Positions 1,941 through 25,683 of a stretch of DNA of 28,842 nucleotides are shown here, piece after piece; within the stretch, counting starts at the first letter, position 1, and each line of letters opens with the position of its first letter. The position numbers were made by a program, and so were the translations under genes. Under the pieces are notes generated by a model, which saw only the letters and a list, made by a program, of their open reading frames with translations, searched no databases and was not told where the DNA came from. This stretch comes from Candidatus Buchananbacteria bacterium (GTDB lineage Bacteria > Patescibacteriota > Patescibacteriia > 2-01-FULL-39-33), in assembly GCA_903907165.1 (NCBI GenBank), contig CAIVNC010000016.1:1-28842 (forward strand), given 5' to 3'.

Positions 1941-4466
1941 TTAAAATCTAGGTACTTCCGCCATCGCCGGCTTACCCAGCTGTCCAATCTTGGAACGCTC
2001 CAAGATCTCTCGCACCACCACTTGATTATCTCTACCATATTTGAGCCTAGACAATTCCTTGAGAGGCTGAGTGATTTCTTTATTGGCCTTGGCAATCACC
2101 GAAGGATGATAAGCTTTCATATTAAATGTATCCGTTGCCGTATTGTCGATAAGCAGACGAACATAAGCATTGTACTTTTCTACATTCATCAAATCATACT
2201 CACCCACTGCCGGCGCCAACTGCTTGGCCATTACCTCGCTATCATCCACACCAATCCGATAACAAACAATACTGCCAACGTTGCCAAAAACCGCATCCTT
2301 AACTTTGGTATCCGTGCCATTAACCAGCTGAGCAATATACTGATGAGCCATGACTAGGTTCAATTTGTATTTTCTAGCCTCAGCTAAAATAATGGAAATG
2401 CTATCGGTAATGAAATTCTGGAATTCATCAATATATAAATAGAAATCACGTCGTTGATCTTCTGGCATATCGGCACGAGCCAAAGCCGCCATCTGAAGCT
2501 TGGAAACGGCAATGAGACCAAGCAAGCTACAATTTGCATCGCCAATCTTACCCTTGGACAAATTCATCAACAAAATCTTGCCGCTGTCCATTACCTCGCG
2601 GAAATTAACACCAGATCTGCCCTGACCGATAATATTGCGCATCAATTCGTTTTCAACGAAACGGCCAGTCTTAGAAATAACATAAGACAACATGTCCGCG
2701 CCATTACTGCCCTTTTGCGAGGCTGTGTATTCACGTTCCCAAAAATCTTTAACTAAAATATCTTTAACATGAGTCAATTTTTCTTTACGGAAAGCATCGT
2801 CGGTAAAAATACGAGCCAGTTCAACAAGCGTGCAAGGATTTTCCGGATCAGCCATGAGAGCCAAAAGCGCATTTCTCATGTAATGTTCAAACATAGGACC
2901 AGCCATGGAAGGATCGGGCAACAGTTTATAGAAAATATTAATCATCTCCTGCGCTGCCTGATCCATTTCATAAAGACCATTGGCATCGAGCATATTAAGT
3001 CCGATCGGACGGCCAAAATCTGACGGATCAAAAATAATCACATCGTCAGCGCGTTCCTTTGGAATATAAGGCAAAATATCTTCTATGAGATTACCATGAG
3101 GATCAATAACACAAACACCTTTACCGGCAATAATATCCTGAATGGCCATAGTCGACATGGTCGTGGATTTACCAGTACCAGTCATACCGATGATATACAT
3201 ATGACGGCGACGATCAGCTTCTTTGATGCGAACCTGAACCGTATTGCCACGATAAGTATTTTCTCCGAGAACAACTCCCTCGGCCGGCAAGTTAAGTGGT
3301 GGCGCCAAACGTCTAGCCATAAGCCAGCGGATATTTGGCACTTCAGTATTTGGAAATGGCAAATGCCACAAGGAAGCCATCTCTTCGGAATTTAAAACGC
3401 AATTATTATTTTCATCAAACAAGCGATAAATAAAATTATTGATCGTCTTGTTTTCATTATTCTTAATTACCGCTTTGAAACCATTGGCATACTGATAATT
3501 GGAATACTGAGAAAAAGCATTAGCTACATATTTTACCGTATCTTTGGCTTGATGTTCCGTCTCAGCAAAAGCCACCAAGCGAATATTAACATCCATGCCA
3601 GCCTTAGAAGCCTTTTCTTCAATTGATTTAACCATTTGTTCTTCAAGCGGCGACAAACGATAATCCTTACTTTTATCTTCAACTGGTTTACTACTACCGG
3701 GCATCCAAGAATTAAGACTACCAAGAGGACTTCCCTGACTAGCCATAGCCTTTTTATAACTATTACCCTGTTGCATCTTGGAAGCGATTTTTACGCCGTT
3801 TTTGCGCCACTCCTTGCGAGCCGAGCGCATCAGAAACTGAATCGAGACTGTAACGCCTTCTGGCAACTTCGACAAAGCACTAAGCACATTAATCATTGGA
3901 TCACTCTCCATGCTTTTGTAGGTCAAAATCGGAAACATCTTGTCTTTAAGCAATTTAATATAACCGCCGGACACGTAACCACGATCGCGGAAAATGTTAT
4001 AGTCCTCAATTTCTTCAATCTGACAATGAGGATACTGGGATAAAATCTGTTGTTTGATATAGTCCTCAAGATACACCGGAATTGCCATGTAAAAAGTGAT
4101 CAAATGATCAGCTCCAACCACAACCTCAAACGACCAAGTATCATAACGTCCAAAAAGCCAAGTCTTAAAACCACGATGAGCGCGCAAACCACCAAGACTA
4201 GAATAAAAATTTTCGATGCCAGAAATAATTTCTTTAATATTTTTCTTGCCATCCTCTTCTTTGATTGCCACTCGCTGAGGCACAGTCAACATAAAAATTT
4301 TCTTCTGAAAAATCCCTGGGTAAACTTTATGATTAGCAAAAACCTTGCGCAAGATCAATAAGACAACAAAAACAAAGACGGCCAGACCAAGCAAGATGCC
4401 GGCTAGCAAAAGATAAGTAACAATATCTGGAGTTAAAATTGTATTGGAATCGATAGTGAAACCCAT
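1941..4466 (-). CDS. Membrane-anchored P-loop ATPase of the VirD4/TraG/TraD (T4SS coupling protein) / FtsK-HerA superfamily, 841 aa, with an N-terminal extension of unknown function
   Basis: N-terminal hydrophobic segment (LLLAGILLGLAVFVFVVLLIL). Walker A reads RHMYIIGMTGTGKSTTM, followed by CVIDPHGNL. Walker B-like reads FYLYIDEFQNF. These resemble TrwB/VirD4 motifs. About 330 aa between the TM segment and the ATPase core have no recognisable match. Confidence 0.7.
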   Translation of the reverse strand: MGFTIDSNTILTPDIVTYLLLAGILLGLAVFVFVVLLILRKVFANHKVYPGIFQKKIFMLTVPQRVAIKEEDGKKNIKEIISGIENFYSSLGGLRAHRGFKTWLFGRYDTWSFEVVVGADHLITFYMAIPVYLEDYIKQQILSQYPHCQIEEIEDYNIFRDRGYVSGGYIKLLKDKMFPILTYKSMESDPMINVLSALSKLPEGVTVSIQFLMRSARKEWRKNGVKIASKMQQGNSYKKAMASQGSPLGSLNSWMPGSSKPVEDKSKDYRLSPLEEQMVKSIEEKASKAGMDVNIRLVAFAETEHQAKDTVKYVANAFSQYSNYQYANGFKAVIKNNENKTINNFIYRLFDENNNCVLNSEEMASLWHLPFPNTEVPNIRWLMARRLAPPLNLPAEGVVLGENTYRGNTVQVRIKEADRRRHMYIIGMTGTGKSTTMSTMAIQDIIAGKGVCVIDPHGNLIEDILPYIPKERADDVIIFDPSDFGRPIGLNMLDANGLYEMDQAAQEMINIFYKLLPDPSMAGPMFEHYMRNALLALMADPENPCTLVELARIFTDDAFRKEKLTHVKDILVKDFWEREYTASQKGSNGADMLSYVISKTGRFVENELMRNIIGQGRSGVNFREVMDSGKILLMNLSKGKIGDANCSLLGLIAVSKLQMAALARADMPEDQRRDFYLYIDEFQNFITDSISIILAEARKYKLNLVMAHQYIAQLVNGTDTKVKDAVFGNVGSIVCYRIGVDDSEVMAKQLAPAVGEYDLMNVEKYNAYVRLLIDNTATDTFNMKAYHPSVIAKANKEITQPLKELSRLKYGRDNQVVVREILERSKIGQLGKPAMAEVPRF

Positions 4467-4973
4467 TTATTTAACAATTCTTTGCCTGTCTTGAATTAAA
4501 CCCAAAACTTTATCTGTTTTAATCTTGGCAATTTGCTCTAGAAAAAACTTATTAATACCAACAATAAACTTTAACCAACCAACAATGAGCTCCAAAATCT
4601 TTCTGGCACTAACCCTCGGCTTGGCCAACTGCTCCAAAATCTTATTAGTCGTTTCCTCACCTTTTACCTTAAACTTGGCTTGATCGACAGCATTCATTTT
4701 GAAATAGTAATCGCCAAGATCTGCCTCTAGGATATCTTCAATCTTTCGATAATCATTATCCACCGGCAGGGCCGGAGCCAATGCCTTAGCTCGCGCGGAA
4801 TCAGCCGAAAAATAAACATCAGAGAGTGCTTCCTGAGCACTTTCTTTGTTTTCTACTTCTGGAGATTCGTGAGATTTTTCACCTCCCAATGATCTTTCGA
4901 TTTCCGACTGGGGTCGATATGATTCTGGAGAGCCAAAATCATTTTTCTTTTCAACTAATTTTTGATTTACCAT
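4467..4973 (-). CDS. Hypothetical protein (168 aa), translationally coupled to the downstream ATPase
   Basis: Its stop TAA directly abuts the ATG of the ATPase (taaATG). RBS GGAAGG lies before its own ATG. The N-terminal half is acidic and disorder-like; the C-terminal part is amphipathic. Confidence 0.55.
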   Translation of the reverse strand: MVNQKLVEKKNDFGSPESYRPQSEIERSLGGEKSHESPEVENKESAQEALSDVYFSADSARAKALAPALPVDNDYRKIEDILEADLGDYYFKMNAVDQAKFKVKGEETTNKILEQLAKPRVSARKILELIVGWLKFIVGINKFFLEQIAKIKTDKVLGLIQDRQRIVK

Positions 4974-5002
4974 CCTTCCACAATAAAGTTATTAACAACT
5001 AT

Positions 5003-5033
5003 ATTATACCACAAAACTATTTTGTGGTATAAT
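5003..5033. promoter_or_regulatory. Palindromic divergent promoter/operator: TATACCACAAAA-cta-TTTTGTGGTATA, with an extended -10 (TGgTATAAT) on each strand
   Basis: Perfect 12/12 inverted repeat at 5005-5016 and 5020-5031. The plus-strand TATAAT at 5028-5033 faces corA. The minus-strand TATAAT at 5003-5008 faces the 168-aa/ATPase operon. No -35 hexamers. Confidence 0.45.
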
Positions 5034-5053
5034 GTATTTATATCCACATACCT

Positions 5054-5998
5054 ATGGCCAACGAAAACATCAAAACCGTTCCCTCACCAAGCAACAAGTT
5101 TGCTTGGATTAATATTATTGATGCCGGCAAAAAAGAAATTGACTACTTGCGACGCAAATTCAAATTTAATACCTTGGATTTGGAAGATTGTTATGCTGAA
5201 CAATATGCCCAACGGCCAAAGTTCATCGTCAGGCAAAATTATTGCTTCTTAATTTTACAATTTCCAGTTTATAACCGCAAAGAAAAGTGTATTTATGCTG
5301 AAGAAATCGACTTTTTTATCACCAAGGATAATTTAATAACTGTTCACGGCAATCATTTACCACCGATTGTCGAGGTTTTTAATTCCTGCGAAAATGATGA
5401 CTTTCATCGTGGCCAATACATGGACGACGACATCGGCTATTTACTTTATGAAATCATTTCTCGCCTTCAGGAATACTGCTATCCCATTCTTGATCACGTC
5501 AGCCTGGATATCAAAAACATTGAAACAAATATTTTCAAGGATCGTGAAAAACAGATGATTGAAAATATCATGTTTATTAAAAAAAATATTTCTGACATCC
5601 GCAAAATTGTCGAAGCGCACAAAAACTCTTTACAAAAAATCCTTCATACCACTTCCCCATTTCTCAATCTCAAGCAAAATAAAAATTATTACAACCATCT
5701 AGTCGAAAACACTAAGGACATTTGGGATCTTCTTGGCGGACACAACGACCTCATCTCCTCTCTTGAGGATACCAACTCCACCCTCGTCTCGCTCAAGCTT
5801 AACAACATCATGAAAACCCTAACGGTTTTCTCGGTTATTATTCTACCACTAACTCTCCTTTCTGGCGTTTTTGGCATGAATACAGTTGACGGCATGCCAC
5901 TCGTCAACAATCCCAATGGCTTTTTTGTTATAGTTGGCTCAATGCTCACTATTGGCATGCTCATGTTTATTTACTTCAAAAGTCGTCGTTGGATTTAG
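5054..5998 (+). CDS. corA: CorA-family Mg2+/Co2+ transporter
   Basis: C-terminal two TM helices with the signature VFGMNTVDGMP (GMN motif). Length 314 aa. Confidence 0.85.
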   Translation: MANENIKTVPSPSNKFAWINIIDAGKKEIDYLRRKFKFNTLDLEDCYAEQYAQRPKFIVRQNYCFLILQFPVYNRKEKCIYAEEIDFFITKDNLITVHGNHLPPIVEVFNSCENDDFHRGQYMDDDIGYLLYEIISRLQEYCYPILDHVSLDIKNIETNIFKDREKQMIENIMFIKKNISDIRKIVEAHKNSLQKILHTTSPFLNLKQNKNYYNHLVENTKDIWDLLGGHNDLISSLEDTNSTLVSLKLNNIMKTLTVFSVIILPLTLLSGVFGMNTVDGMPLVNNPNGFFVIVGSMLTIGMLMFIYFKSRRWI

Positions 5999-11777: not shown

Positions 11778-11783
11778 GACTTT

Positions 11784-11819
11784 GAGATTATTTTGTTTAA
11801 ATTTAAACAAAATAATCTC
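11784..11819. promoter_or_regulatory. Perfect 36-bp palindrome GAGATTATTTTGTTTAAA|TTTAAACAAAATAATCTC abutting the flotillin -35
   Basis: Exact 18/18 inverted repeat with no spacer. It ends 6 bp upstream of the -35 hexamer and looks like a dimeric transcription-factor operator. Confidence 0.45.
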
Positions 11820-11831
11820 AAAAATATAAAA

Positions 11832-16822: not shown

Positions 16823-17260
16823 CTATTCTATATTAGTCGATAAATCACTTAATTGTTCGGCAATGGAGTTGGAATTCTTTTCGGTGGCTGATTTCATTTT
16901 ATTCCATTGATCTTCATCCCAAATTTCTAGTCTATCGTAAAGTCCGGCAACAACAACTTTTTTATCCAGTCCAGCAAACTTTCTGAGGTAGTCTGGCAAA
17001 ACGATTCTGCCCTGACCATCAACCTCAACGTCCATAGCGCTAGCGAGAATAAAACGGGATACTGCACGACTACTTTCTTTATTGATTGGCATGGCAGCAA
17101 CTTTTGGTGCTATCTGCTCCCAACTTTTCTTGGGGTAAAGCACCAAACAGTTATCAAATCCTTGAGTCACAACTGCCTTTTTCAAATCATTACGAAACTT
17201 AGCTGGTACTGCCAGCCTTCCTTTTGCATCAATATTGTGGGAGTATTGCCCTAAAAACAT
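16823..17260 (-). CDS. mraZ: Transcriptional regulator MraZ
   Basis: MFLGQYSHNIDAKGRLAVP... duplicated MraZ fold, 145 aa. First gene of the dcw cluster. Confidence 0.9.
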   Translation of the reverse strand: MFLGQYSHNIDAKGRLAVPAKFRNDLKKAVVTQGFDNCLVLYPKKSWEQIAPKVAAMPINKESSRAVSRFILASAMDVEVDGQGRIVLPDYLRKFAGLDKKVVVAGLYDRLEIWDEDQWNKMKSATEKNSNSIAEQLSDLSTNIE

Positions 17261-17290
17261 GTATTTTTAGTTTTTAACTTACTTTAAATT

Positions 17291-17316
17291 CCCCACTTAT
17301 CCCCACCATTCCCCTC
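17291..17316 (-). promoter_or_regulatory. MraZ operator: three direct repeats (GTGGGG, GTGGGG, GAGGGG) at 10-bp phasing in the mraZ leader
   Basis: Minus strand: GAGGGGAATG GTGGGGATAA GTGGGGAATT, immediately downstream of the -10. This matches the known GTGGG-type MraZ boxes of other bacteria. Confidence 0.55.
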
Positions 17317-18448: not shown

Positions 18449-19057
18449 TTATAACGCTTTTTTACCGACTAAATTATCAATCAAAATAAAATTCTTAGTC
18501 TCAAACAAATCATAAAGGAATTTATCAGCCACATCGCGGCGATAACGGAACTCATCAAGAGAAAAAACCGCATAGTTTATCGGCTTGCCAAGTTCATGTT
18601 CAAACTCCTTGGCCAAGTCCTCAAGTTTGCTCATTTTTACTTCGCCAACCAGCAAGATATCTGCTGGTGCTCCGGTTACCCCAACAAAAGCTCCTGACAA
18701 CAAACAGAATTCAACTTTACCCAATTTCTTGATTTTTTCCAAAATTGGTCGATCTAATAATAAGTAACCCTTGATAACTAGCGATCGCAATTCTTCCAAA
18801 AAAACAAAATTCTGGTTTAATTTGTAATATTTTTTATTGTCTTTCAATTCCTTTTCTACTTCACGGCCCAAATCAACTTTATCATGAGAACTAACAATAC
18901 CAATTTTCTCTAGATGGCTCAATTCCCGGCGAATAGAGTTTAAGTGCGTGTCCAAACTTCTAGCTATTTCTCGAACAAAGAAAAAACTTTCCGGATTATT
19001 GAAAAAGAGGCGCAATAGCATTACCCTAGTTTTGGAACCAAAAAGTTGGTCGAGCAT
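18449..19057 (-). CDS. Putative winged-helix transcriptional regulator (202 aa)
   Basis: N-terminal HTH-like segment (VREIARSLDTHLNSIRRELSHLEKIGIV) resembling ArsR/MarR-type wHTH, followed by an uncharacterised C-terminal domain. Confidence 0.45.
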   Translation of the reverse strand: MLDQLFGSKTRVMLLRLFFNNPESFFFVREIARSLDTHLNSIRRELSHLEKIGIVSSHDKVDLGREVEKELKDNKKYYKLNQNFVFLEELRSLVIKGYLLLDRPILEKIKKLGKVEFCLLSGAFVGVTGAPADILLVGEVKMSKLEDLAKEFEHELGKPINYAVFSLDEFRYRRDVADKFLYDLFETKNFILIDNLVGKKAL

Positions 19058-19175
19058 AAAAAATTGGACTGAGTTATATAAAATATAGTATAATATTATA
19101 AACTAACTGTAAACCCCCGGCGATTATTCCTATCGCAGTTTTTTTCTTTTAAATAAGCTGAGAAGTGAATCAACT

Positions 19176-21557
19176 ATGGAAAAATTTTACCCAAGATTAA
19201 ACAAATTAATTCTGGAAACGGGAGCCGATGAGGCCATTGGCGGTGCCATGATTGCCAAATCAGACGCTAAATCCGAAGAAAAGCTAGGTCTTATTTTTAG
19301 CATAATTGATATAAGAGGCGTTGACGATTTTTTCTGCGAGAATTTCATAGAGATTATCAATGACCTAAAAACCGAATATTATCTTCCCCCGATTGAAGCT
19401 GAATATGGGGTCGAAAAAAGGTTTGAAGAATGTCTCCAGCGCGCTAATCGTCGCATCCACAAGTTAATTGCCCAATCTATTAACGTTATCGACCTTCGTG
19501 GCATCAACGCTCTGATCGGCTTAGTTTACCGTAACAGAATTTATCTCAGTCATTCCGGCAAAATGGGAGCTTACCTATTTCACAAAAAAGTTAAAGGCGA
19601 CTTTGCCACCGTCGATATTATCGGACCAAATGCCGGACGCATCAAGCCAGACCAAGAAAAAATCTTTGGCAATATTGTCAGTGGTGAAATCACCACCAAA
19701 GATAATCTATTTTTCTGCAATTCAGTTTTATTGCAATATTTCTCAGCTAGCAATCTTTGCCGCATCGTCGGTGAAAACCAGCTTTTTGAAGCTATGGATC
19801 TTATTCGCAATAGATTAGAAGATCGCGAAGCTAGGGATAAATTTTATGCTGTCGTTTCTCAACTTCAGGTTTTTGAGGATATTCCTTCGGCCTCTGAAAT
19901 TATTTCCTCAAACAAAGCCTCTGAGCTTCATGCCAAACCAGAAAAATCCATTAACAATCTTATTAATACTCAGCAAAAGACTGAGAAATATCTCACTCCC
20001 TCTACCCTACCTAACTGGCAGAAGTTTTTGTTACTACTCGCTCGCGGCCTCAAAACATTAATCACTTGGATCATAAAATACGGTTGGATTGGTGCTCAAA
20101 AAGCAGCTGAAGGTATTATTTTCGGCTCAAAATTTATAGCACAAAAGATTTCCGCATATTTTGAAAAAAGAAAGAAACGCCAAACCCTACTTGCCGGCGT
20201 AACCGAAACCAAAGTTTCACTTGACGAAGATAAAGATGGCGAACAAATTTTAACTATCAAGAAAGAAACAGTAGCGATTATTTCCGAGGAGCCATTACCT
20301 AAAACTGAAAACGTCCAAGAAACCAAACAACAAGCCGAGCCAAAGAAGGATCGAAAAGAAATCGCGGAACAATATACCAGAACCACAACCTCAGAAATTA
20401 ATCGCCATGGCATTAAACCTCAAGTCAGCCATTGGCTCAATAAACAAATCGGCGGATTTATCAGCCTAAATATTTGGCAAAAGATTTTGGTAGTTAGTGC
20501 TTTTGTTCTTTTCTTCTTCTTTTCTCAAAGCATTGTCCTTAACAGTCAAAAAACTAGCCGCGATGTCAACATTAACGACGTCCAAACTATCGTCAAGCAA
20601 GCCAATGAATATTTGAACAAGGCCGAAGCTCAAAACATTTTTAACGATGAAACCGGTGCTAAATCCTCTATCGCCTCCGCCACCACCGAGATGGCGAAGA
20701 TCCCGGCTAAAAAACAATATGAGAGCGACATCCAAGCTATTCAAAAAAGAATCGATGATTTAAATCATTCTTTAGAAAAGGTTACCTATCTGGATAACCC
20801 AGCAGTCATTGCTGATCTTGGAAATACTAGCGCTCAAGCTCAAGCCGTTGGCCTAGCCAAAATTGGCACTCAGCTTTTCTCTTTTGATAATCAAAATCAT
20901 CAACTCGACATTATTGACCAAGCCAAAAAACAAACCATTACCGTGCCAGTTGACCCATCCATCGGCCAAGTCAGAAAGGTTGTCACCATGAGCGACAAAT
21001 CAATTGCTTTACTTAACGATAAAAATGAAATTTATCAATATGCTCTTGGAGCCAGTACCACCAAATCTTTAGCGGTAGGCGCTAACGTCAAAGATATTGA
21101 AAGCTATGGTGGCAAACTTTATATTCTGCAAGACAATAAAGTTACCAAAAATATCGCCACTAAAGACGGCTTCAACTCTGGCAGCAGTTGGATCAAGGGC
21201 AATCCAGATTTAACCAAATCCATCTCTATTGCGGTCGGCGATGGAGTTTACCTTGGTCAAACCAACGGCCAAATCAGCTTCTATAATTCTGGCTCATTGG
21301 CCAATTTCAAGGTCTCCACAATCAATCCAGTGCTTTCCTCCCCTGCTCAAATTTATACCAATCTGGATTCACTCTATGTCTACGTCCTAGATCCTCAAAA
21401 CCAAAGAGTGGTAATCTTTGACAAACAAGGCAATCTAAAAACCCAATACACATCAAAGTTATTCACTGGCCTCAAATCCATGGCTCTATCCGAGCGCGAC
21501 AAAAAAATCTACGTCTTGTCGGATAATAAAGTTTACGCGATTGATATTACATTCTAA
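19176..21557 (+). CDS. Large membrane protein (793 aa): cytoplasmic N-terminal PP2C/SpoIIE-like region, one TM segment, extracytoplasmic repeat/beta-propeller-like C-terminal domain
   Basis: N-terminal patterns IYLSHSGKMGAYLF and DNLFFCNSVLLQYF are reminiscent of PP2C motifs; catalytic Asp residues were not verified. TM segment ILVVSAFVLFFFF around residue 430. C-terminal repeated KLYILQDNKV / KIYVLSDNKVYAI strands. Confidence 0.6.
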   Translation: MEKFYPRLNKLILETGADEAIGGAMIAKSDAKSEEKLGLIFSIIDIRGVDDFFCENFIEIINDLKTEYYLPPIEAEYGVEKRFEECLQRANRRIHKLIAQSINVIDLRGINALIGLVYRNRIYLSHSGKMGAYLFHKKVKGDFATVDIIGPNAGRIKPDQEKIFGNIVSGEITTKDNLFFCNSVLLQYFSASNLCRIVGENQLFEAMDLIRNRLEDREARDKFYAVVSQLQVFEDIPSASEIISSNKASELHAKPEKSINNLINTQQKTEKYLTPSTLPNWQKFLLLLARGLKTLITWIIKYGWIGAQKAAEGIIFGSKFIAQKISAYFEKRKKRQTLLAGVTETKVSLDEDKDGEQILTIKKETVAIISEEPLPKTENVQETKQQAEPKKDRKEIAEQYTRTTTSEINRHGIKPQVSHWLNKQIGGFISLNIWQKILVVSAFVLFFFFSQSIVLNSQKTSRDVNINDVQTIVKQANEYLNKAEAQNIFNDETGAKSSIASATTEMAKIPAKKQYESDIQAIQKRIDDLNHSLEKVTYLDNPAVIADLGNTSAQAQAVGLAKIGTQLFSFDNQNHQLDIIDQAKKQTITVPVDPSIGQVRKVVTMSDKSIALLNDKNEIYQYALGASTTKSLAVGANVKDIESYGGKLYILQDNKVTKNIATKDGFNSGSSWIKGNPDLTKSISIAVGDGVYLGQTNGQISFYNSGSLANFKVSTINPVLSSPAQIYTNLDSLYVYVLDPQNQRVVIFDKQGNLKTQYTSKLFTGLKSMALSERDKKIYVLSDNKVYAIDITF

Positions 21558-24836: not shown

Positions 24837-24909
24837 AAAAATTTAATATTATTTTACTTAATTATAACTGCTAATTAATCAAGGAGCAAGTTTGTGTTAT
24901 AATTAAGCT

Positions 24910-25683
24910 ATGGTAAAATCTAGAAAAATTTTAAAGTGGTTGGTGGTTTTAATTATTATTATCAAAGCGATAGTTTTCGCTCTGATTTTTGTTTATCCAA
25001 CCGCTGGCCTCGCCGATACTGACAGCATTAATTCTCAGCAACTGATTAATCTCACTAATGATTATCGAAAATCATTGGGATTGAGTACCCTAGCCGTCAA
25101 CGACCAACTAACCCAAGCTGCCACGCAGAAAGCCAAGGACATGTTGGCTGGTGGTTATTTTAGTCACACTTCACCCGATGGGCACCATTTTTCTGACTGG
25201 ATAAAAGCTACCGGTTATCAATATTTATCTGTCGGCGAAAACCTGGCCATTGATTTTAATGACAACAGCGATTTATTTCAAGCTTGGATCAATAGCCCAA
25301 AACATAAAGAAAATATTGTCGATTCCTCCTATCAAGAAATTGGCCTAGCTGCCATTAGCGGTAGATATCAAAATCACAACACTTTTGTAGTCGTTCAACT
25401 TTTTGGCTCTCATCCAGACTTTGTCACTAGTCCAAATGTTAACCCTAACGACACTCAGGAAGCAGCCTCTGGCTCAACTATTCCTCAAACAACAAAAGAA
25501 GCTGCTCTTCCGAAACAGCCTCTCGACTTTAGTTATCTAAGTAAAATTAATATTTCAATTAATTTGATGATATTTTTTATCCTAGCCCTGCTTCTTATCA
25601 CCTATCAGCCCCTAACGAACAACCAAGCAAAAATTGCTAAACCCAAAATAATGCGATACCAAGCAAAAACAGCCAACGAATGA
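24910..25683 (+). CDS. CAP/SCP (YkwD-like) domain secreted protein with a C-terminal hydrophobic anchor
   Basis: N-terminal signal sequence, a CAP-domain pattern (GYFSHTSPDG...NSPKHKENI) and C-terminal FFILALLLI. An extended -10 TGTTATAAT lies 6 nt before the ATG, so the mRNA looks leaderless. Confidence 0.7.
   Translation: MVKSRKILKWLVVLIIIIKAIVFALIFVYPTAGLADTDSINSQQLINLTNDYRKSLGLSTLAVNDQLTQAATQKAKDMLAGGYFSHTSPDGHHFSDWIKATGYQYLSVGENLAIDFNDNSDLFQAWINSPKHKENIVDSSYQEIGLAAISGRYQNHNTFVVVQLFGSHPDFVTSPNVNPNDTQEAASGSTIPQTTKEAALPKQPLDFSYLSKINISINLMIFFILALLLITYQPLTNNQAKIAKPKIMRYQAKTANE

Follow-up and report, generated by a model that had tools for sequence, protein, structure and literature searches.

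Back-to-back extended -10 promoters as the probable basis of a perfect inverted repeat between corA and a VirD4-like ATPase operon in a Candidatus Buchananbacteria bacterium

Results

Gene content of the locus

The window, i.e., the whole stretch of 28,842 nucleotides that was analysed (one contig of a Candidatus Buchananbacteria bacterium), contains an 80-bp gap from which the corA gene on the plus strand and the 168-aa gene/VirD4-like ATPase operon on the minus strand diverge (Table 1). The 168-aa gene abuts the gene of the 841-aa ATPase, which implies that the two form an operon, and the minus-strand unit holds a 153-aa ORF in addition to them. The other genes of the window have housekeeping functions, namely cysS, dus, the mraZ-mraW-PBP-mur cluster, L10/L12 with their leader, mltG, uppP and fpg. 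According to the CorA homologues, the contig belongs to the Patescibacteria (CPR), close to the Buchananbacteria and Falkowbacteria. An exact look-up of the CorA product of the window returned no record; its closest relative, which is encoded at the locus designated L033, is 77% identical and the next one is about 60% identical. The divergent order, in which the VirD4/TrwB-like ATPase and 168-aa genes are read in one direction and corA in the other, is kept across the Patescibacteria down to a CorA identity of 37% in most of the loci that reach far enough.

The 168-aa protein has a disordered N-terminus that is rich in Pro and Glu and a conserved C-terminal motif, WLKIIPGVNKFFLEQEAKIKTDKIL. 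Its AlphaFold model contains a confident C-terminal domain of five helices (residues 70-167, pLDDT > 90), and the fold search returned no PDB match with E < 1. The possibility that this protein is an autoregulator was considered and rejected, as it has neither a Pfam match nor a PDB fold match and a DNA-binding fold was not seen in the model.

Table 1. Genes, predicted promoter elements and repeats at the corA gap (coordinates of the window).
Feature	Coordinates	Strand	Basis
841-aa TrwB/VirD4/HerA-like P-loop ATPase	1941..4466	-	PF10412, PF01935, PF02534, PF12696
168-aa protein, Patescibacteria-only family	4467..4973	-	No Pfam match; 56 homologues, all hypothetical
Predicted transcription start of the minus-strand operon	4996	-	Inferred from the -10 position
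Predicted promoter of the 168-aa/ATPase operon, TGTGgTATAAT; -10 hexamer 5008-5003	5003..5013	-	10/10 match; best-conserved intergenic part (TTTGTGsTATAAT) across relatives
Perfect inverted repeat, 14-nt arms around CTA	5003..5033	.	Single copy in the window, 0.01 expected by chance
Centre AAAA-CTA-TTTT: T-tract at -18 to -21 of both promoters and three unpaired bases	5013..5023	.	T dominant at -18/-19 in both arms, 32 loci
Predicted promoter of corA, TGTGgTATAAT; -10 hexamer 5028-5033	5023..5033	+	Intergenic match at 10/10, ending 20 nt short of the corA ATG; equivalent in most relatives
Predicted transcription start of corA (A), 7 nt after the -10	5040	+	Inferred from the -10 position
ATATCCACA, 8/9 match to the DnaA-box consensus TTATCCACA, on the predicted corA start	5040..5048	+	Sequence match
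corA, 314 aa, CorA-family Mg2+ transporter	5054..5998	+	PF01544, E = 5e-53; start codon fits the homologue alignment

Anatomy of the inverted repeat

The repeat in the gap reads ATTATACCACAAAA-CTA-TTTTGTGGTATAAT. Its perfect arms occupy 5003-5016 and 5020-5033, and they grow to 20 nt (4997-5039) when two mismatches are allowed. The 12/12 palindrome of the original prediction is real and slightly larger than quoted, since the 12/12 part is the inner portion (5005-5031) of the 14-nt arms. Considered as an operator-type inverted repeat, it has two equivalent half-sites that agree at 14/14 positions. The core, ACCACAAAA-N3-TTTTGTGGT, was found once in the window even when three mismatches were allowed (shuffled sequences expect 0.01), and the palindrome has no second copy in the 28.8-kb contig. 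Among 185,579 species-representative genomes, a set from which the source genome is evidently missing, the exact core was matched 32 times in 32 different, unrelated genomes; none of these sites was homologous to the window and TATAAT flanks were present in 0/32, and these matches are chance or terminator-like sites.

Promoter elements in the two arms

When read toward its own gene, each arm has the form TTT-TGTG-G-TATAAT (TTTTGTGGTATAAT), in which a T-rich tract at -20 to -18 is followed by TRTG at -17 to -14, a free base at -13 and the consensus hexamer. The extended -10 that had been proposed for each arm is confirmed by exact copies of TGGTATAAT at 5025-5033 (+) and 5003-5011 (-). TATAAT is complete (6/6) on both strands, including the A at -11 and the T at -7. 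The claim that neither side has a -35 element was also fair, as the best -35 match at a spacing of 16-18 bp is 3/6 on either strand. In Gram-positive bacteria the extended -10 takes the form -17 TRTG -14, and when the hexamer is perfect, TGnTATAAT promoters are active without a -35 element (PMC2613000). A scan with the sigma-70 consensus called neither arm as a promoter. The minus-strand -10 ends 29 nt before the ATG of the 168-aa gene; the predicted leaders are 14 nt long and devoid of a Shine-Dalgarno sequence for corA, and 23 nt long and ending in GGAAGG-ATG for the minus-strand operon. With starts at about 5040 (+) and about 4996 (-), the predicted transcripts do not overlap, and "face-to-face", the earlier wording, should be replaced by "back-to-back", which Beck and Warren reportedly used in 1988 for divergent promoters whose transcripts do not overlap.

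Matches to TRTGnTATAAT of at least 9/10 were found eight times in the window, seven of them within the intergenic portion, which makes up about 11% of the sequence (about 89% is coding). Three of the matches are perfect, i.e., the two arms and one positioned 6 nt upstream of the ATG at 24910. Additionally, TGNTATAAT with at most one mismatch occurs 21 times in the window compared to 7.2 expected, and canonical TTGACA-17-TATAAT/TATAGT promoters are present before 22853 (+) and 9808 (-). Because both extended -10 and canonical TTGACA-17 promoters occur in the window, the organism appears to use ordinary sigma-A-type signals.

Comparison with orthologous corA loci

The comparative set consisted of the non-redundant sequences upstream of corA from 67 loci of Patescibacteria metagenomes, with CorA identities of 36-77%. 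The loci were obtained from look-ups of the nearest CorA homologues, from a metagenome scan with a CorA alignment (80 loci) and from four contigs that encode an identical 168-aa protein. In these four short contigs, which come from other samples, the gap is identical too, which makes them uninformative on micro-diversity. A plus-strand and an opposed minus-strand TRTGnTATAAT, mostly matching at 10/10, were found in nearly all of the 67 regions. Opposed pairs of this kind cluster at the corA gap, with 60 there and 3 elsewhere in about 380 kb of related loci. The recurrence of the motif on both strands in most of the corA regions argues for the two divergent promoters of the original prediction, one for corA on the plus strand and the other for the 168-aa/ATPase operon on the minus strand. 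In 32 loci that were aligned on the hexamer, both arms follow the pattern tTT-T-R-T-G-s-TATAAT, with the arms of the window matching it at 14/14 positions; the motifs of the relatives were picked as the best-scoring TRTGnTATAAT, so that the frequencies at -17 to -14 are partly ascertained.

The two arms of the relatives differ systematically, the minus arm being mostly TGTGG and the plus arm mostly TATGC. Moreover, the number of identical positions at -22 to -13 was 4.97/10 for arms within a locus versus 5.24/10 (sd 1.72) for arms between loci. Among 49 high-scoring pairs, the offset between the hexamers was 20 in the window and in L033, 22-23 in 23 pairs, 27 in one, 31-33 in five and 50-171 in 18. 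From L037 to L109, the offset of 22-23 bp stays narrow while the intervening sequence drifts, and the window and L033 are outliers with their offset of 20. A helical-phase or a -35-surrogate constraint may account for the offset of 22-23 bp; the three opposed pairs outside the corA gap in 380 kb are too few to establish it as a general rule for divergent promoters.

The closest relative carries TTTTaTGGTATAAT as its right arm, in which a G-to-A change at -16 breaks the palindrome and keeps the TRTG, and the left arm has no compensating change. The window and L033 agree at 88% of the positions of the core at 4981-5040 compared to 46% of third codon positions, and the centre, AAAA-CTA-TTTT, is the same in both. 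The identity of the core points to a stronger constraint than a -10 consensus would impose by itself, and this additional constraint may come from the requirements of the spacer, the T-tract or the initial transcribed sequence, or from an additional binder. The start of the minus-strand leader, ATAGyTGTTAATAAC (4981-5002), which includes the 9-bp palindrome GTTAATAAC, is shared by the window and L033 and, in part, by L059, although synonymous sites are saturated.

Motifs in the corA leaders

The DnaA box was defined as the 9-mer TTATNCACA, of which the motif on the predicted corA start of the window matches 8/9. In the interval from 0 to 22 nt after the corA -10, the sense orientation of TTATCCACA was exact in 6/61 leaders compared to 0.02 expected, and present with at most one mismatch in 12/61 compared to 0.5 expected; the antisense control in the 61 leaders gave 0 exact copies and 1 with at most one mismatch. 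Six of the eight exact copies in the 380 kb of loci are located at a corA leader (L091, L097, L103, L106, L112 and L116). The leaders of L033 and L037 carry ATATTCACA. It is possible that this DnaA-box-like motif is a corA-specific operator. A literature search on the DnaA box together with corA yielded nothing relevant.

Other properties of the leaders were also recorded. In 19 of the 67 non-redundant loci, CCC directly precedes the corA ATG, often as tCCCCATG (L034-L116), and many corA leaders in L034-L116 have no Shine-Dalgarno sequence. Short motifs of the CTTTATAAAC and TTTATAAAGT types occur in 2-4 copies in the longer corA and 168-aa leaders of L039, L049, L054, L058 and L109 and are absent from the window.

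Other symmetric sites in the window

A second symmetric divergent pair, CTTAATTATAAC-N27-GTTATAATTAAG (24857-24868 and 24896-24907), lies between mltG/yceG (-) and a gene for a CAP-domain protein (+); its two -10 hexamers are part of a 12/12 inverted repeat with different flanking bases. The plus-strand element of this pair, TGTGtTATAAT, stops 6 nt short of the ATG at 24910, a distance that points to a leaderless mRNA. At 19088-19099, in the gap that separates the genes at 18449-19057 (-) and 19176-21557 (+), TATAATATTATA consists of two -10 hexamers that abut on opposite strands. This site is likely to be a symmetric bidirectional promoter of the type described by Warman et al., with predicted transcription starts about 13 bp apart. 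Finally, a perfect 42-bp palindrome without a spacer (21/21; TTTGAGATTATTTTGTTTAAA followed directly by TTTAAACAAAATAATCTCAAA) is present at 11781-11822 between the end of a Mur ligase gene and the TTGACA-17-TATAGT promoter of a gene for an SPFH-domain protein.

Discussion

In this study, which was based on one contig and the orthologous corA loci of other Patescibacteria, we attempted to explain a perfect palindrome in a divergent gap. We consider it very likely that the palindrome consists of two independent extended -10 promoters of the sigma-70/sigma-A type that occupy opposite strands of the 80-bp gap in a back-to-back arrangement. The sequence comparison supports both arms as putative extended -10 promoters that would fire corA and the 168-aa/ATPase operon divergently. 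RNA polymerase bound to the right arm would start the corA mRNA near 5040, and polymerase bound to the left arm would start the mRNA of the 168-aa/VirD4-like ATPase operon near 4996. The inverted repeat would be perfect at 14/14 positions because both promoters match the same consensus and because their hexamers are only 19 bp apart in this lineage; its symmetry would then be a by-product of the promoter sequence and not a separate binding site. With hexamers at this distance, each -10 occupies the -35 position of the other promoter and the footprints of the polymerases would overlap almost completely, which in turn implies that only one promoter would be occupied at a time. Promoter activity, the positions of the transcription starts and the mutual exclusion of the polymerases are what we infer from the arrangement of these elements.

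Selection for the symmetry itself is not supported by the comparison, in which the systematic differences between the arms, the range of offsets, the substitution in L033 and the position frequencies all argue against it. According to the position frequencies of the family, the chance of full symmetry at -20 to -13 is 0.006 per lineage, which amounts to 0.17-0.31 for one or more such cases when 30-60 lineages are considered. One perfect palindrome is therefore unremarkable, and a reader who scans for palindromes would pick exactly that case. Symmetric -10 pairs are a habit of the divergent gaps of this genome rather than one specific site. Uniqueness and a lack of conservation in relatives, which the original prediction had named as counting against it, apply to the palindrome within the contig and to its symmetry, respectively, whereas the two TRTGnTATAAT elements are conserved in the relatives.

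By sequence criteria, the site in the corA gap can be assigned to two known promoter classes, those with an extended -10 and those arranged back to back. Examples of the extended -10 (TGn/-10) class are galP1, lambda Pre* and sigma-A promoters of Bacillus and Streptococcus. The Gram-positive members share with the corA gap the TRTG-n-TATAAT motif, a weak -35 (3/6), a T-rich tract just upstream and the right distance and orientation to the genes; the difference is the host, which here belongs to the Patescibacteria (CPR), and in which the promoters are predicted ones. To our knowledge, there are no mapped promoters in the Patescibacteria. As in the back-to-back divergent promoters of Beck and Warren (1988), the elements lie on opposite strands between divergent genes and share a short stretch of DNA. 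However, in the corA gap each -10 is placed on the -35 of the other promoter and the consensus copies fuse into a perfect palindrome, and in the corA family the offset of the hexamers is tight, at 22-23 bp, in most of the orthologous loci.

A third comparison can be made with the bidirectional promoters described by Warman, Forrest, Wade and Grainger, who showed that promoter symmetry commonly yields divergent transcription (bioRxiv 10.1101/2020.01.31.928960). Such promoters have overlapping or abutting -10 elements and transcription starts that are 7-25 bp apart, most often 18 (bioRxiv 10.1101/2020.01.31.928960), and a polymerase that is bound in one way excludes the other orientation (PMC12825309). 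The corA gap resembles them in that the symmetry of the elements would explain the divergence and in that one orientation of the polymerase would exclude the other, but its hexamers are 19 bp apart and its predicted starts about 44 bp apart, which places it outside this type.

The original prediction went further and regarded the palindrome as an ideal dimeric operator, through which a single repressor could gate both corA and the ATPase module. A dimeric repressor bound to the inverted repeat would occlude both -10 elements and thereby co-regulate the two units, an explanation that we find unlikely. The arms, perfect at 14/14 positions around a 3-bp centre, speak for it, but all of the arm positions are accounted for by the promoter consensus, and in the relatives the symmetry within a locus does not exceed that consensus while the spacing of the half-sites varies from 20 to 171. 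The A4-CTA-T4 centre and the neighbouring bases are kept in L033 even though synonymous sites are near saturation, which would suit an operator; the substitution in the arm of the same locus, however, is without a compensating change. Similarly, the phylum-wide divergent synteny of corA with the 168-aa and ATPase genes would make co-regulation sensible, yet genes for HTH or RHH regulators are absent nearby, the 168-aa protein shows no DNA-binding fold and the palindrome occurs just once in the 28.8-kb contig, with all 32 exact core matches in the species genomes being unrelated and without TATAAT flanks. The ideal operator and the single gating repressor are thus not supported. The Pfam search of the larger ORFs of the contig revealed MraZ as its only recognisable regulator, and the small ORFs gave no Pfam match in a relaxed search (E = 1). 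MraZ is encoded at 16823-17260, about 12 kb away, and has its own direct-repeat site. MraZ recognises direct GTGGG repeats. Direct repeats of GTGGGGATAAGTGGGGA (GTGGGG) are present at 17290-17306 (-), just downstream of the mraZ promoter, and are the expected MraZ autoregulatory site.

A well-known operator of comparable layout is bioO of E. coli, a palindrome that is bound by BirA and overlaps the divergent bioA and bioBFCD promoters. In both cases an inverted repeat extends over both promoters of a divergent pair; in the corA gap, in contrast to bioO, no cognate regulator was found in the contig, and the orthologous loci conserve neither the symmetry nor the spacing. Nothing in the sequence requires a regulator at the palindrome, and it is improbable that the perfect palindrome was co-opted as an operator superimposed on the promoters. 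If corA does have a dedicated operator, the TTATCCACA-type box would be a better candidate for it than the palindrome.

The observations can also be read jointly, although we regard this as quite unlikely: the corA gap would be a conserved bidirectional module under a spacing constraint (22-23 bp or one helical turn more, with transcription starts about 44-47 bp apart) that alternates Mg2+ uptake with the VirD4-like ATPase, corA being gated by DnaA or another protein via the TTATCCACA-type box and the palindrome possibly being a co-opted operator. If this were true, the module would represent a class distinct from the symmetric promoters with starts 7-25 bp apart that have been described so far, and mutually exclusive binding of the polymerase would alternate Mg2+ uptake and the VirD4-like ATPase system.

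It is very improbable that the repeat works as a structural hairpin, whether as a cruciform, as an intrinsic terminator or insulator acting in both directions, or as a hairpin in the 5'-UTR of transcripts that come from further upstream. A scan for terminator-like structures lists the repeat on both strands, and 5003-5033 folds as single-stranded DNA with -11.7 kcal/mol (z = -5.2). However, the genes diverge from the site, so that there is no upstream transcript to terminate; only 3/14 stem pairs are G-C and the T-run tails are poor, which does not agree with an intrinsic terminator; the predicted transcription starts lie outside the repeat, which would then not be transcribed; and the relatives have lost the stem while keeping the two -10 motifs. 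At the palindrome, Rfam gave no match at the gathering and E-value thresholds, the only hit being a chance snoRNA (E = 0.24).

The possibility that the repeat is a repetitive or site-specific element (a terminal inverted repeat, a MITE/REP-like element, a dif-like site or an oriT beside the VirD4-like ATPase) is remote in the extreme, for although an AT-rich perfect inverted repeat adjoins a gene for a coupling-protein-like ATPase, it occurs once in the contig without recurring in other genomes, its 3-bp centre does not fit that of dif, which is 6-8 bp, the orthologous loci retain the position and lose the repeat, and the genes of the window did not include any identified as a relaxase, transposase or integrase. 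The dif, oriT and mobile-element readings were accordingly rejected on the basis of the length of the centre, the copy number and the gene content.

Conclusions

The corA gap is most likely a compact divergent promoter, neat but ordinary for a Patescibacteria genome, and its two back-to-back extended -10 elements would together produce the palindrome. The offset of 22-23 bp, the DnaA-box-like motif of corA and the phylum-wide synteny of corA with the ATPase were also observed, and none of them changes the current understanding. The case calls for caution in AT-rich, compact genomes, in which two opposed consensus extended -10 elements automatically give long, perfect palindromes that resemble operators. 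Moreover, the approximately 60 orthologous loci constitute sequence-level evidence for the use of Gram-positive-type TRTGnTATAAT promoters in the Patescibacteria, and this evidence is useful for annotating the genomes of uncultivated Patescibacteria and for building expression tools.
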